From Geopsychrobacteraceae bacterium (lineage in GTDB: Bacteria; Desulfobacterota; Desulfuromonadia; Desulfuromonadales; Geopsychrobacteraceae): a stretch of 64,000 bases of DNA. The notes under the pieces were generated by a model. That model worked only from the letters and a program-made list of their open reading frames with translations. It was not told the DNA's origin and searched no databases. Positions 21,335 through 25,162 of this stretch are shown here, in pieces. Both the position numbers and the translations under genes were made by a program. The stretch covers positions 91,838-155,837 of the forward strand of contig OY762430.1 in assembly GCA_963665685.1 (NCBI GenBank), written 5' to 3'. Each line of letters starts with the position of its first letter. Position 1 is the stretch's first letter.

Positions 21335-23464
21335 ATGTCGCAAACTGGACAGATTATACAAGACTGTCAAATCGTTGAAGAGCTTTCAGCGAATGATGGA
21401 TTTGTTTCCTATCGGGTTACTTGCCCAGACATTGGTTCTTGCCGATTATTGCTTGCACATCCTCAGGCTCGCTTAGCTGTTAAGGGGAATAGTGCTTTTT
21501 TTGAGCGTGCCGAGCAACTTTCTCAATTAGATGTTCCTGGTATTGCCACAGTCCTTGAGGTTGGTTTTTACCAGGAGAGATTAGCTTGTCTGCTGCCTTT
21601 ATGTGATGGCCAACCGCTGTATGATTATATGGCGCAGCAGCGTAGTATAGGTGATGTGCTGTCTCTTGTGCGCGCTCTTGTTGATGCTCTTTCTGTTGTT
21701 CACCAGCGTGGAATGTGTCATGGGAATCTGACCCCGGCACTTATTCTTGTGAATCAACAGCAGCAGCCTGAATTGTGTGATTTTGCCCTGTCTCAACTAT
21801 TTGTTCTTGATTATAACAGTGGCGTAGATCCACGCTATTGTAGCCCGGAGCAGGTGAGGGGAGAAGTCGCTACTCCTGCCTCTGATATTTATAATCTTGG
21901 CTGTATTTTATATCGTCTTCTCAGTGGTAATCCCCCATATCGTGGCAAGAATAATTTTTCCATTGCCACTCGTCATTTAGAGGGAGAGTTTCCTGCTCTG
22001 CCAGAATCTGTCACTAAATGTTCCGATCTTATTAACGCCATGGTGCCATTGATTCCGTCACGGCGTATCACCGCGGTCGAGGTATTAAATTGGATTGATC
22101 GGCTTCTAGGTGATGATGAATTATCAGATATCCTCTGCTGTGAGCCTGAAGATATCTCAATAGTTGAATTTTCTTCATCTTATGAAGAACAGGCAGATTC
22201 TTCTCAGGAGCCTCTATCTTCAATCTCATCCAGAGTCGAAGAGTTGTTGAAAGATCAAAATTTCGTCATGCCTGAACCAGAAGATGACAGTAATGATACG
22301 CTGGATGCTCTTCCTGCCCCTGCCGTGAATCTGCAGCGCCCATCCAGCTCCGGCCTATATCGACGCTACGTTGTTCTGTTGCTGCTAGGCGTAGTTTTAG
22401 GGATGTCCGCTTTTTTAGGTTATTCCTACTGGCAGGATTCTTCCTCGGACTCTTCATCGGCCAGCGTTCCTGTCTTTCCTGTTGCTAGCCTTGATGATGC
22501 TTTGCAGGCATGGGGTAATAAAAAAACAGATGTCGCTGAAGATGGTTTAGAATTATTAATCGCTGAACATCCTGATGATCCTCGTGCTTATAATAATCTC
22601 GCTGCTTTTTACGCTGCTCAAGGAGATTTAGACAATGCCCGTAAACTATTGGAGCGGGGCTTAAGGACCAACACCGAGTACCTTACAATCCATCAGAATC
22701 TTGGTTCTGTCTATGCTGAAATGGCGCGTGAGTCGTACGGTAAAGCATTGCAATTAAATGCTGAGGAACGGACTATTCCGTTGCAGGTCTTTTCCAGTCA
22801 AGGGCTTTTTCTTTTGCAGCGAAAACAGAGTGGTGCCGCAGATGATAGCACTCTCCTTGCTCTTGACGAGGTTCCTTCTTTAAATATTGCTGAGAGCGTG
22901 ATTGAGGCGGGTGAATCCGTTGAGTCTCAGGAGATTAGTGAGCCCTCTCCGGTAGAGACTAGCGCTGAAGGTGATGTCGCCCTGGCTGAGGCAGAACCGA
23001 CTGAGGCTGTTGAAAAAATAGAGAACGTCCCTGAAGAAATCTCTGAACCGAGCCCTGTCGTTAAGCCCCAGGCCGATACTGCTATTGCCCAATCGAAAGA
23101 AGTGGCTACAGATATCATGGTTGAGGTACAGCAGACTCTTGAAAATTGGGCGGCTGCGTGGGCGGATCATGATGTAGAAAGATACCTTTCTTTTTATGCT
23201 GATTCTTTTCGGCCTGCTGGCGGTATAGAAAAGGTTGCATGGGAAAAGCAACGACGTCGCCGTTTGCAGGTTCCCGGTGCTATTCAGATCAGTTTGTCTG
23301 AGATAAATATTGTCGAAGAGGGTAGTGAAGAGATTGTTGTTGAGTTACTGCAGACTTATCAAAGTGAACGTTACAGTGATGTGACCCGTAAGCAATTTGA
23401 GTTGATGAAGTCAGTAGATGGCTTGAAAATTGTTCGTGAGAATGCTTTGGAGATTATGCGTTGA
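21335..23464 (+). CDS. Membrane pseudokinase (Hanks fold, catalytically degenerate) - TM - TPR - acidic linker - NTF2/SnoaL-like (Csd6 C-terminal-like) protein
   Basis: HGNLTPALILV (HRD loop), CDFA (DFG), YCSPEQ (APE), SDIYNLG; TM YVVLLLLGVVLGMSAFLGYSYW; TPR DPRAYNNLAAFYAAQGDLDNARKLL; C-terminal WAAAWADHDVERYLSFYADSF. Confidence 0.8.
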   Translation: MSQTGQIIQDCQIVEELSANDGFVSYRVTCPDIGSCRLLLAHPQARLAVKGNSAFFERAEQLSQLDVPGIATVLEVGFYQERLACLLPLCDGQPLYDYMAQQRSIGDVLSLVRALVDALSVVHQRGMCHGNLTPALILVNQQQQPELCDFALSQLFVLDYNSGVDPRYCSPEQVRGEVATPASDIYNLGCILYRLLSGNPPYRGKNNFSIATRHLEGEFPALPESVTKCSDLINAMVPLIPSRRITAVEVLNWIDRLLGDDELSDILCCEPEDISIVEFSSSYEEQADSSQEPLSSISSRVEELLKDQNFVMPEPEDDSNDTLDALPAPAVNLQRPSSSGLYRRYVVLLLLGVVLGMSAFLGYSYWQDSSSDSSSASVPVFPVASLDDALQAWGNKKTDVAEDGLELLIAEHPDDPRAYNNLAAFYAAQGDLDNARKLLERGLRTNTEYLTIHQNLGSVYAEMARESYGKALQLNAEERTIPLQVFSSQGLFLLQRKQSGAADDSTLLALDEVPSLNIAESVIEAGESVESQEISEPSPVETSAEGDVALAEAEPTEAVEKIENVPEEISEPSPVVKPQADTAIAQSKEVATDIMVEVQQTLENWAAAWADHDVERYLSFYADSFRPAGGIEKVAWEKQRRRRLQVPGAIQISLSEINIVEEGSEEIVVELLQTYQSERYSDVTRKQFELMKSVDGLKIVRENALEIMR

Positions 23465-24795
23465 AGTTGAAACGCTTCATATTTCTATTTTTCTGTGTCG
23501 GGGCTATTGGGCTGAGTGGTGTGAAGGTTAGAGCTCTTTTACCTCAAGAACCCGCTTTGCCGGGTGAATTGCCTTTCGTGAGAGTTGAAGCTTTGAAGGA
23601 TATTTCTGCTTCTGCGAATGATCCTGAAATAGAACCGCTCAATGGGCGTCTGAATGAAAACCCTGATGATTATGAAGCACGCCTTCTTAAGGGGCTGTTG
23701 CTTTTTCAGAAAGGTCTGTTAGGTGAAGCGATTTATGAGCTCGAGGATTTAACTGGCAGGGCACCACGGTTCCAGCTGGCTCATCTTGTGCTAGGGGATT
23801 TGCTTATCGCACGTTATGGGCGCTTTCAGCCATTACAAGCGGATCGCCTTGATATGGAATTAGCAGAGGCAAGTAAAACTCAAATTGCGCATCTGCAAAG
23901 TGAAGCGCGGGCACGCTTGACTGGATATCTATCTTTAGTCGGAAATACTGCCGTCCCTGAAGTTTTGCTGTCTTTGAGTCCCGAAACAAAGTATGCCCTG
24001 GTTGTTGATAAAAGTAAAAATCGTCTTTATGTTTTTAGTAATTCAGGCGCTGGATTACCGCCAACGCTCATTGATCATTTCTATATTGTGCTTGGTAAGG
24101 TTCCTGGGGATAAGCTGAAAGAAGGGGATTTAAAAACCCCAAATGGGGTCTATTTTGTCACCAGTTACCTTGCTGATGAACAATTACCGCCGCTTTATGG
24201 GGCGGGTGCTTTTCCGGTTAATTATCCGAATGAATTCGATCGGCGCCTAAAGAAGACAGGCCGGGGTATCTGGTTGCATGGTACGGATAAATCGTTATAC
24301 AGCCGTCCTCCGCTCGATAGTGAAGGGTGCGTGGTATTAACCAATGACGAATTTGACGAAATTACCCAATACGTAGAAGTTGGACGCACGCCTATTGTTA
24401 TTAGTGATCGTGTTAACTGGATTAGTAGCCAACAGTGGTTGGGTGAAAATATTGAAATTCAGGCGGCTCTTGAAACTTGGCGACAGCGTTGGGAAAGTGC
24501 TGATACCGGACAGTATTTACAATTTTATGCTTCTGATTTCTGGAGCGATGGATATGATCTGACGCATTGGAAGGAGTATAAAAAGCAAGTTTTTGCCGGT
24601 AAAACCTACCAAAAAATTGAGCTGTCCGATTTGTCTCTTTTGGCCTATCCCTTACATGATGATAAGCGACCAATGGTCGTTGCTAATTTTGTTCAGCGTT
24701 ACCGTTCCAATAACTATAACGGTGATATGCGTAAACGGTTGTACCTGGTGAAAGAAGATCGTCATTGGCAGATTCTTTACGAAGGTCCACAGTGA
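23461..24795 (+). CDS. L,D-transpeptidase/carboxypeptidase (YkuD domain) with TPR and NTF2-like C-terminus, Csd6-like
   Basis: Signal peptide; ALVVDKSKNRLYV, EGDLKTPNGVYFV, PVNYPNEFD, GIWLHG...SEGCVVL (His/Cys pair); C-terminal WRQRWESADTGQYLQFYASDF; 4-nt overlap with the upstream gene. Confidence 0.85.
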   Translation: MKLKRFIFLFFCVGAIGLSGVKVRALLPQEPALPGELPFVRVEALKDISASANDPEIEPLNGRLNENPDDYEARLLKGLLLFQKGLLGEAIYELEDLTGRAPRFQLAHLVLGDLLIARYGRFQPLQADRLDMELAEASKTQIAHLQSEARARLTGYLSLVGNTAVPEVLLSLSPETKYALVVDKSKNRLYVFSNSGAGLPPTLIDHFYIVLGKVPGDKLKEGDLKTPNGVYFVTSYLADEQLPPLYGAGAFPVNYPNEFDRRLKKTGRGIWLHGTDKSLYSRPPLDSEGCVVLTNDEFDEITQYVEVGRTPIVISDRVNWISSQQWLGENIEIQAALETWRQRWESADTGQYLQFYASDFWSDGYDLTHWKEYKKQVFAGKTYQKIELSDLSLLAYPLHDDKRPMVVANFVQRYRSNNYNGDMRKRLYLVKEDRHWQILYEGPQ

Positions 24796-24797
24796 TT

Positions 24798-24992
24798 TTA
24801 TAGCGAATCGTTTAGCTGTTGTAATAATAGATCCAGGTTTAGCTGATGATGGGTGGCAATTTCTTCAATGGTTGCAAATAGCATAGAGCAACAAAGACAG
24901 GTTATGGTTTCTTTTTCATACGCTTTAATGACGCCCATAGTCTTGGGAAAATGATCCAGTATATCGAGAAGAATATCGGTTTTCTTTATCAT
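24798..24992 (-). CDS. Small DUF1858-like protein (64 aa) with CxxC-type motif
   Basis: MIKKTDILLDILDHFPKT...TCLCCSMLFATIEEIATHHQLNLDLLLQQLN resembles the DUF1858 pattern; GGAG RBS before ATG at 24992. Confidence 0.62.
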   Translation of the reverse strand: MIKKTDILLDILDHFPKTMGVIKAYEKETITCLCCSMLFATIEEIATHHQLNLDLLLQQLNDSL

Positions 24993-25162
24993 TAAAAGCT
25001 CCCGGTGGGTGAACTGTTCGTTATTCAGATTAGCATGCTGATCTGACCGCACCAAGAGTTGTTTTTTGTTGCCAGCGTTATCTTTTGCACAAGTAAAATA
25101 TTTGACATTGAAGGTCTTCTGTGATCTCCTAGGGCGCTGTTTGAGGGAGATAGAAAGACCAC

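Follow-up and report, generated by a model that had tools for sequence, protein, structure and literature searches.

A receptor-like pseudokinase joined to a Csd6-type cell-shape module in Geopsychrobacteraceae

Curved or helical cell shape depends in several bacteria on Bd1075, Csd6 and Pgp2, L,D-carboxypeptidases that trim the tetrapeptide stems of peptidoglycan to tripeptides. Bd1075 from Bdellovibrio bacteriovorus is directed by its NTF2 domain to the convex face of the cell (PMC8938487), the NTF2 pocket of Pgp2 from C. jejuni binds peptidoglycan (PMC8038945), and the NTF2-like C-terminal domain of H. pylori Csd6 is represented in Pfam as the family Cds6_C. No mechanism is known by which a protein is targeted to one lateral wall (PMC8938487), and a dedicated NTF2-bearing partner is not described in the Bd1075 or Pgp2 papers (PMC8938487, PMC8038945). 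Bacterial pseudokinase families, for their part, have been catalogued and are almost entirely uncharacterised (PMC12599244). One of them is the proteobacterial, membrane-associated 'GLW' family, which was catalogued in 2025 and has no assigned function (O'Boyle et al.; bioRxiv 10.1101/2025.01.12.632604; PMC12599244); it has a poly-Leu stretch at β3 and a transmembrane (TM) helix after the kinase domain, carries GLW in place of HRD and has lost the DFG Asp in 100% of its members (bioRxiv 10.1101/2025.01.12.632604; PMC12599244). A bacterial pseudokinase domain is also carried by M. tuberculosis MviN/MurJ, as cited in PMC3844677 (Gee et al. 2012, Sci Signal 5:ra7). Here we describe the union of a receptor-like pseudokinase with a Csd6-type shape module, each component being of a kind already known. 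Its gene lies at positions 21335..23464 (+ strand) of a 64,000-nucleotide (nt) stretch of DNA, hereafter the window, from a Geopsychrobacteraceae bacterium (GenBank assembly GCA_963665685.1, contig OY762430.1, positions 91,838 to 155,837), and is translationally coupled to a Csd6-like peptidase gene.

The open reading frame (ORF) spans 21320/21335..23464, and the ATG at 21335, a start point shared by the homologues, is preceded by a Shine-Dalgarno sequence, GGTGGAG, 5 nt upstream. The product of 709 amino acids (aa), plus stop, consists of a pseudokinase domain, a TM helix, tetratricopeptide repeats (TPRs), a linker and an NTF2-like domain, and a homologue search across 5.8 billion proteins returned ~67 full-length proteins with the same Pfam architecture of Pkinase, TPR and Cds6_C (31-96% identity). 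The Hanks-type pseudokinase domain, predicted to be cytoplasmic, comprises residues ~8-262 (21356..22120; all domain coordinates are on the + strand) and is matched by Pfam Pkinase (PF00069) over residues 59-252 (E 2.1e-24, 86.8 bits against a cut-off of 31.7), with HGN at residues 129-131, DFA at 149-151, SPEQVRGE at 170-177 and DIYNLG at 184-189. It is followed, within a cytoplasmic linker that is otherwise disordered, by a conserved juxtamembrane helix at residues 298-306 (22226..22252; family consensus IAARIEARLKE) and then by the single TM helix at residues ~343-367 (22361..22435), with the N-terminus inside. The periplasmic part begins with TPR repeats at residues 383-471 (22481..22747), the best-conserved part of the protein (mean pairwise identity 0.53), where several Pfam TPR families, TPR_19, TPR_14 and TPR_11 among them, match residues ~389-463. 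An acidic, Pro/Glu/Ser-rich disordered linker at residues 496-589 (22820..23101; predicted local distance difference test (pLDDT) score <50, mean identity 0.15) leads to the Cds6_C NTF2-like domain at residues 596-709 (23120..23461; PF24125 over residues 598-703, E 2.1e-16, 60.6 bits against a cut-off of 27). A Pfam match to YkuD is absent from this protein and present in the neighbouring gene only; PASTA (PF03793) likewise gave no Pfam match, and NF033483 reached 94 bits against a cut-off of 450. A promoter and terminator scan returned nothing that exceeded shuffled expectation. Within the acidic linker the peptide EISEPSPV occurs twice, at residue 533 (window 22931-22954) and at residue 568 (23036-23059); the copies are identical as peptides and share only 15 of 24 bases, differing at synonymous sites, and the repeat is present in a relative at 96% identity and absent at 60% identity, being either old or maintained at the peptide level.

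The sole segment with a 19-residue Kyte-Doolittle hydropathy >1.6 is that starting at residues 343-348, and its N-terminal and C-terminal flanks carry net charges of +3 and -1, respectively. Given one TM helix and these flanking charges, the kinase domain is therefore placed in the cytoplasm and the TPR-NTF2 part in the periplasm. In an AlphaFold2 (AF2) model built on 50 homologues, the kinase fold extends over residues 11-270 (block-mean pLDDT 84-98), followed by a helix at 341-369, the TPR helices at 383-471 and an alpha+beta NTF2 domain at 585-708, with disordered linkers at 274-339 and 496-589 and the juxtamembrane helix at 298-306. Foldseek placed the kinase domains of bacterial PknA, Stk1 and PknB near the top (TM-score 0.64-0.81, normalised to target), and the values of 0.78-0.81 for PknA, along with the Pfam match and a pLDDT >90, assign the domain to the bilobal Hanks-type kinase fold. 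For the full-length model, the top Foldseek match was the CaMKII holoenzyme (5U6Y; 727 aligned columns), which likewise joins a kinase domain with an NTF2-like hub domain, and the likeness is most likely a coincidence of domain content, the membrane parting the two domains here. The first-pass annotation, made from the letters alone, had read this product as a kinase scaffold spanning the envelope independently of PASTA domains, with one TM helix followed by TPRs, an acidic linker and a Csd6-like NTF2 domain, and had taken it for a scaffold or sensor that may position or regulate a peptidoglycan peptidase. All of the motifs it quoted (YCSPEQ, SDIYNLG, HGNLTPAL, CDFA, LAVK and EISEPSPV twice) are present, Pfam, hydropathy and AF2 agree on the order of the domains, and both the single-pass topology and the absence of a PASTA domain stand.

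The catalytic residues were located by hhalign of the family profile with 46 kinases in which HRD and DFG are intact (probability 100%, E 3.5e-48). In the window protein, L39 falls at the VAIK Lys, R58 at the αC Glu, HGN at HRD and DFA at DFG; across the family, the VAIK Lys corresponds, past a deletion of three residues, to a Leu of the poly-Leu stretch, with R/H/Q at the αC Glu and DF[A/S] at DFG. None of the compared family members has the Gly-rich loop GxGxxG, at the place of which the window protein reads LSANDGFVSY. The HRD position is H-G-[N/S/A/H/G] in all 38 short (~700-aa) fusions compared, the window's included, and the only sequence in the comparison that keeps HRD is a 1232-aa coiled-coil variant. 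The catalytic-loop Lys is replaced by Ser or Thr in nearly all members and the catalytic-loop Asn is also replaced in most, HGNLTPAL standing in the window protein in place of HRDxKxxN. The Asp of DFx is present in the window protein and in ~85% of members, with E or Q in a few, a K/R is conserved two residues before the β3 Lys column, and an acidic residue lies one position before the αC Glu column. The β3 region reads CRLLLAH in the window protein and AKLFLLL or AKLLWVV in relatives, and the moderately conserved LAVK sits in the loop preceding αC, unaligned with the β3 Lys. The C-lobe framework is retained, with a short, highly conserved activation segment (LDYxSGxDPxYxSPEQVRGE), the P+1 loop, the αF motif DxYxLG, a PknB-like αG region and the subdomain XI Arg. 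Judged by its sequence, the domain is clearly a pseudokinase, and the earlier reading of it as catalytically dead, with the Gly-rich loop lost and Leu at the β3 Lys, is borne out by all of the ~700-aa fusions, which lack the catalytic residues.

Selection on the protein was estimated as Nei-Gojobori dN/dS in ten orthologue pairs. The ratio was 0.10-0.41 in the kinase N-lobe, 0.07-0.27 in the kinase C-lobe, 0.05-0.17 in the TPR region and 0.05-0.27 in the NTF2 domain, compared with 0.15-0.66 in the linkers (0.2-0.66 in the acidic linker). All three folded domains are under purifying selection, the pseudokinase being held about as tightly as the periplasmic domains, and the invariant residues of the C-lobe are the ones that maintain its fold and binding surface.

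The partner gene (23461..24795, + strand) starts inside the stop codon of the pseudokinase gene, the two overlapping by 4 nt (cgTTGAag, 23461-23464). It encodes a protein of 444 aa with a signal peptide, a weak TPR-like N-terminal region, a YkuD domain (Pfam E 6.3e-17) in which the catalytic residues H273, G274 and C290 are kept, and a Cds6_C NTF2 domain (9.7e-33). The closest solved relatives are Bd1075 (7O21, E 1.6e-46), Csd6 (4XZZ, 2.5e-31) and Pgp2 (6XJ6, 5.2e-26), all three of which are matched across YkuD and NTF2, 7O21 aligning over residues 165-440. By homology, the partner is a Bd1075/Csd6/Pgp2-type L,D-carboxypeptidase homologue of putative activity. The locus is shared by three relatives (33-58% identity), in which rplM-rpsI-argC lie upstream, the YkuD-Cds6_C gene comes next with an overlap of 1 or 4 nt, and a small DUF1858-like gene, queA, tgt, yajC and secDF lie downstream. 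Scanning one genome per species yielded 40 fusion loci, and a YkuD-NTF2 gene follows the fusion in every locus with sufficient contig.

The two proteins of the pair end in related NTF2 domains. That of the pseudokinase protein is matched by phmmer to the NTF2 domain of Bd1075 (7O21; E 7.1e-12), and its family-invariant Y675 aligns with Bd1075 Y274, the base of the NTF2 pocket (PMC8938487). When 55 NTF2 domains of the pseudokinase-protein (partner) type were compared with 54 of the enzyme type, ten positions were invariant in both (W605, W609, Y617, Y621, W636, Q673, Y675, S677, K686 and E702), which, with both domains belonging to Cds6_C, confirms the proposal that the C-terminal domains of the two neighbours are homologous. 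Eight further positions, each ≥85% conserved within its type, switch between the pseudokinase protein and the enzyme (A606/R, S610/E, R640/K, R643/V, P647/K, I650/Q, D682/G and F688/L), and an extra invariant Tyr-Pro insertion occurs only in the enzyme type. As the framework of the pocket is kept while eight positions switch, the pocket of the pseudokinase protein appears to be re-lined, which suggests a related yet distinct ligand.

Fusion ORFs of 690-750 aa, at 30-60% identity, recur in ~40 species genomes, of which several are complete chromosomes and nearly all belong to Geopsychrobacteraceae. By record title, the carriers are Geopsychrobacteraceae, Desulfuromusa (including D. kysingii DSM 7343), Malonomonas (including M. 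rubra DSM 5091), Pelovirga and unclassified Desulfuromonadales, and the public annotation of their fusions is 'tetratricopeptide repeat protein' or 'serine/threonine protein kinase'. Among 151 sampled genomes of the order, 15 gave full-length matches, all within the window's own family. The recurrence of architecture and gene pair in ~40 species genomes, complete chromosomes included, rules out a chance read-through or an assembly fusion, so that the fusion described by the first-pass annotation is genuine; its range is restricted to Desulfuromonadales, mainly Geopsychrobacteraceae, in line with the confinement to Desulfuromonadia that the annotation had suggested surveying, and kinase-less pairs extend more widely, including Gammaproteobacteria. 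The kinase-less version (320-440 aa) has a TM or signal anchor, TPRs and NTF2, occupies the same place with YkuD-NTF2 next, and is found in Geopsychrobacter, Desulfuromonas and the gammaproteobacterial Thioalkalispiraceae and Ectothiorhodospiraceae. In the one kinase-less relative checked (G061), a 392-aa gene lies directly after argC with no intervening kinase gene; the kinase is therefore absent rather than split off, and an arrangement of kinase and TPR-NTF2 as split genes is ruled out there. An exhaustive HMMER search with the periplasmic part gave 235 cluster representatives at E <= 1e-30, most of 270-470 aa, and ~24 of the best 150 cluster representatives were ~700-aa fusions.

A maximum-likelihood tree built from the TPR+NTF2 part, with gammaproteobacterial proteins as the root, needs three state changes; in the simplest history the kinase was gained once, at the base of the Desulfuromonadales clade, and lost at least twice. 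The earliest-branching member is the 1232-aa protein, which keeps HRD and DFG, has His at the β3 Lys and no Gly-rich loop, and carries an ~800-aa coiled coil between kinase and TM helix. Geopsychrobacter-type kinase-less proteins retain the juxtamembrane helix motif, which fits with kinase loss. The core module is the pair of a kinase-less TM-TPR-NTF2 protein and a YkuD-NTF2 enzyme, to which a lineage-specific kinase, degenerate from early on, was added on the cytoplasmic side; as kinase-less pairs exist, including in Gammaproteobacteria, and the kinase was lost repeatedly, the cytoplasmic domain is therefore dispensable for the core job.

Some loci depart from this general plan. In Desulfuromonadales MAG-BB-08 (JAAXQG010000039.1; locus L024, the same as L084; proteins P0169 and P0171), the cluster is expanded to four genes: a 703-aa kinase-TPR-NTF2 protein with HQS, DFS and the β3 Lys kept; the 1232-aa protein with kinase (HRD and DFG kept, His at the β3 Lys), ~800-aa coiled coil, TM helix, TPR and NTF2; a YkuD-NTF2 protein; and a 255-aa secreted protein ending in NTF2. 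The proteins of this cluster look like intermediate stages of kinase degeneration. The host genome itself encodes a truncated paralogue outside the window (G000:C1:3227055-3228737; L006 145-1827), a protein of 558-560 aa with only 5 homologues and a clade-restricted distribution. Over their whole length, its residues 1-156 align to positions 1-156 of the pseudokinase family (hhalign 97.5%, E 7e-12), with THG at HRD and ENFG at DFG, and the kinase fold stops after residue 156; the remainder comprises a stretch that is rich in Asn and Lys and resembles a coiled coil, then a TM helix and, without TPR, a Cds6_C NTF2 domain. The paralogue adjoins an insertion sequence (IS)-type transposase, and no YkuD gene lies alongside. 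Another Desulfuromonadales genome (L025) encodes generic active kinases that match the family profile at 1e-41 to 1e-46; these are HRD/DFG kinases with other C-terminal domains and were set aside as unrelated. A contig labelled as a Chloroflexota metagenome-assembled genome (MAG; JADFVC010000316.1, L047) carries a locus near-identical to L045 of a Desulfuromonadaceae MAG (branch lengths 0.03-0.04) and is probably mis-binned rather than transferred to Chloroflexota.

Further genes accompany the pair in the window or in relatives. In the window, a small convergent gene (24798-25055, - strand; 85 aa, CxxCC motif) ends 2 nt past the YkuD stop; its position is kept in the relatives at 33-58% identity, its counterparts bear weak to faint DUF1858 Pfam marks in two of the three relatives and none in the third, and a link to the gene pair is not evident. 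In Malonomonas-type loci (L047, L048, L049, L051, L054, L061, L064 and L082), a third gene of ~255-275 aa behind YkuD, missing from the window, encodes a secreted N-terminal domain and a Cds6_C NTF2 domain, which puts three NTF2 proteins in a row; in the related copies of L024 and L022, this N-terminal domain has a WRIPTREEL/WRLPRKDEL-like motif. Cds6_C seems to be a mobile envelope module, as matches of the periplasmic-part search (P0131, P0132, P0135, P0201, P0168 and P0248) combine TPR with 4-5 tandem Cds6_C domains, or an N-terminal BamE lipoprotein domain with three Cds6_C domains.

The host genome is a complete chromosome of 4.69 Mb, in which the pseudokinase gene is the one PF00069 match and in which no FHA domain was found. 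An unfiltered search with a hidden Markov model (HMM) built from active kinases returned, besides the pseudokinase, only a UbiB-type protein and a weak match to the truncated paralogue. Of 41 family genomes, 17 have no Pkinase match besides the ~700-aa pseudokinase, and the others also carry one ~800-aa canonical kinase. NCBIfam matches to defence-system kinases (MADS6, PglW, TOMM, lanthionine synthetases) score far below the respective cut-offs, reflect a generic kinase domain and were rejected. The MviN pseudokinase is reportedly phosphorylated by PknB and then recruits the FHA protein FhaA. With no other Pkinase and no FHA in the genome, such a phosphorylated-pseudokinase model is therefore inapplicable, and a role as partner or substrate of an active Hanks kinase is rejected for the host and for the 17 of 41 family genomes.

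A cytoplasmic link of another kind occurs in H. pylori, where Csd5 is reported (Blair et al. 2018) to be a bitopic scaffold of the shape complex, with a periplasmic domain that binds peptidoglycan and a cytoplasmic part that binds cytoplasmic partners; Csd5 contains an SH3 domain, lacks a kinase fold and binds the bactofilin CcmA. Bactofilin is absent from the host genome, where PF04519 has no match and tblastn with a same-genus bactofilin gave none at E <= 10. One bactofilin of ~140 aa is found in 37 of the 41 family genomes, including all five other genomes of the genus, irrespective of the fusion; this pattern is uninformative, and bactofilin was rejected as the cytoplasmic partner or as an alternative. 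As the host lacks it, a Csd5/CcmA-like link is therefore not required.

We lean, with moderate confidence, towards a non-catalytic bitopic trans-envelope adaptor that acts with the co-translated Bd1075/Csd6-type L,D-carboxypeptidase in stem-peptide trimming, and so probably in forming the curved rods that are typical of the family. The ancestral working unit would be the periplasmic TPR-NTF2 part, a 'reader' that could bind peptidoglycan via its NTF2 pocket, or bind the enzyme, and would target or gate stem-peptide trimming by the L,D-carboxypeptidase. The pseudokinase would have been added later as a cytoplasmic docking or oligomerisation platform that ties the periplasmic module to a cytoplasmic partner or position, without phosphotransfer or action through an active Hanks kinase, and information would flow either as inside-out positioning or as outside-in reporting. 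Curved rods have been described as a diagnostic trait of Desulfuromusa (PMC4961709), which fits a curvature module. More tentatively, and as a possibility that we would not call probable, the orphan pseudokinase, the genome's only kinase-like domain, could be the cytoplasmic foot of a peptidoglycan reader: the re-lined NTF2 pocket would read either a stem-peptide state, for instance the product, or some local feature of the wall, the L,D-carboxypeptidase would be held by the TPR, and the intact substrate face would dock to a cytoplasmic landmark, resulting in one-sided trimming and curvature. If true, no bacterial pseudokinase before it would have been shown to serve morphogenesis in the absence of a phosphorylation system.

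Several observations weigh against the adaptor. The kinase domain was lost repeatedly and is hence dispensable in some lineages, its cytoplasmic partner is hypothetical, and the host lacks bactofilin, the type of partner used by the analogous H. pylori Csd5 scaffold. Retention of the DFG Asp in ~85% of members, together with the K/R near the β3 column, leaves nucleotide or metal binding possible by sequence. On the periplasmic side, operon membership is the sole tie between the pseudokinase protein and the YkuD enzyme, the activity of which, L,D-carboxypeptidase as opposed to transpeptidase, is read from homology, and the curved-rod trait is recorded for relatives, the host itself being uncultured.

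The repeated loss of the kinase is also what a purely periplasmic function would lead one to expect, in which TPR-NTF2 suffices and the pseudokinase is a folded plug or dimerisation domain that stabilises or oligomerises the anchor without a specific cytoplasmic partner. Most homologues of the periplasmic part are indeed kinase-less proteins of 270-470 aa, fusions accounting for ~24 of the best 150 representatives, kinase-less pairs occur inside the same bacterial family, the kinase was lost at least twice, and the replacement of the short linker by a long coiled coil in the 1232-aa variant suggests that oligomerisation matters. A mere plug sits poorly, however, with purifying selection on the kinase that equals that on the periplasmic domains, and with conservation that is focused on the activation segment, the P+1 loop and αF-αG, the face by which Hanks kinases bind substrates and partners, rather than spread over the fold, and we regard this explanation as rather unlikely. 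It is very improbable that the domain is a functionless relic of a once-active receptor kinase on its way to deletion. Such a relic would account for the lost catalytic residues, for the relatives already without the domain and for the truncated half-kinase paralogue in the same genome, yet a neutral remnant is not expected to stay intact across such divergence: the fold is predicted with confidence, C-lobe residues are invariant over ~40 genomes at 30-60% identity, and dN/dS is low (about 0.1-0.2) and comparable in the pseudokinase and the periplasmic domains, which speaks against decay.

WNK, CASK, SelO and HER3 are precedents for kinases with unusual active sites. ULK4 and DLHK are discussed in the same vein (PMC12599244). 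The fusion could accordingly be imagined as an atypical active enzyme or a nucleotide-dependent switch that signals the state of peptidoglycan inward by non-canonical phosphotransfer, other chemistry or a ligand-driven conformational change, with the mostly kept DFx Asp, the conserved K/R before the β3 column and the acidic residue before the αC Glu column as its remaining equipment. This we consider improbable, as the catalytic Asp, the Gly-rich loop, the β3 Lys and the αC Glu are absent, the catalytic-loop Lys and Asn are mostly gone, a bulky Leu or Trp occupies the Lys position and the genome is without FHA readers; poly-Leu sites were moreover judged unlikely ATP binders in a review of bacterial pseudokinases (PMC12599244). 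The trans-envelope adaptor stays the reading that we prefer.

The confinement of shape-determining peptidoglycan hydrolases to one cell face is an open question, for which the module offers a tractable genetic handle. It pairs such an enzyme with a non-catalytic partner bearing a diverged copy of its targeting domain, and in one lineage this partner spans the membrane to a conserved cytoplasmic domain; two carriers, Desulfuromusa kysingii DSM 7343 and Malonomonas rubra DSM 5091, are in culture and non-pathogenic. The adaptor, if true, would provide the first functional context for a bacterial pseudokinase family, and the locus illustrates that a Hanks pseudokinase can persist under selection in genomes without an active Hanks kinase.

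Among receptor kinases, the closest parallel is found in the PASTA kinases (PknB, PrkC, StkP, Stk1), which share the bitopic plan of a Hanks domain inside, one TM helix and a peptidoglycan-related module outside; the pseudokinase fold is closest to PknA/PknB/Stk1, and the bacterial-type SPEQxRG and αG motifs are kept. In contrast to them, the present protein has no PASTA domain and no catalytic residues, and occurs in a Gram-negative host with no other Hanks kinase or FHA protein. With MviN it has in common a Hanks-type pseudokinase on a membrane protein tied to cell-wall synthesis and an extracytoplasmic sugar- or wall-related domain, whereas it differs in having no MurJ domain, a hydrolase as operon partner, and a host without active Hanks kinase or FHA. 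The scaffold-like bitopic layout is shared with Csd5, which differs in its lack of a kinase fold and in its binding to the bactofilin CcmA, a protein that the host does not have. It is also shared with EssB/YukC, a bitopic membrane pseudokinase that serves as a structural scaffold in type VIIb secretion of Firmicutes (PMC9600267), and no EssB/YukC match was obtained in the Pfam scan of the pseudokinase protein.

The kinase family of the fusion may be the GLW family, the two having been compared by description only. Both have a poly-Leu or Leu/Trp stretch at the β3 Lys position (consensus AKL[FL][LW]L) and a TM helix behind the kinase domain, here at residues 343-367, and the fusions have the consensus AGLW-HGN. 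In contrast to the description of the GLW family, it is HGN that aligns to HRD, with GLW just before it in most relatives and RGMC-HGN in the window protein, and the DFG Asp is mostly kept. The first-pass annotation had known of no description of the fusion, which agrees, for the joining of the domains, with the atlas and the review, as an NTF2 domain or a YkuD pairing is mentioned in neither and TPRs are not linked to GLW in either (bioRxiv 10.1101/2025.01.12.632604; PMC12599244), and needs qualification for the kinase domain, which resembles a family already catalogued. Towards Bd1075, Csd6 and Pgp2, finally, the likeness lies in the YkuD and NTF2 domains of the partner, and the C-terminal domain of the pseudokinase protein belongs to the Cds6_C family as well; the pseudokinase protein differs from these enzymes in having no YkuD domain, in being anchored in the membrane, and in combining its NTF2 domain with TPRs and a cytoplasmic domain.

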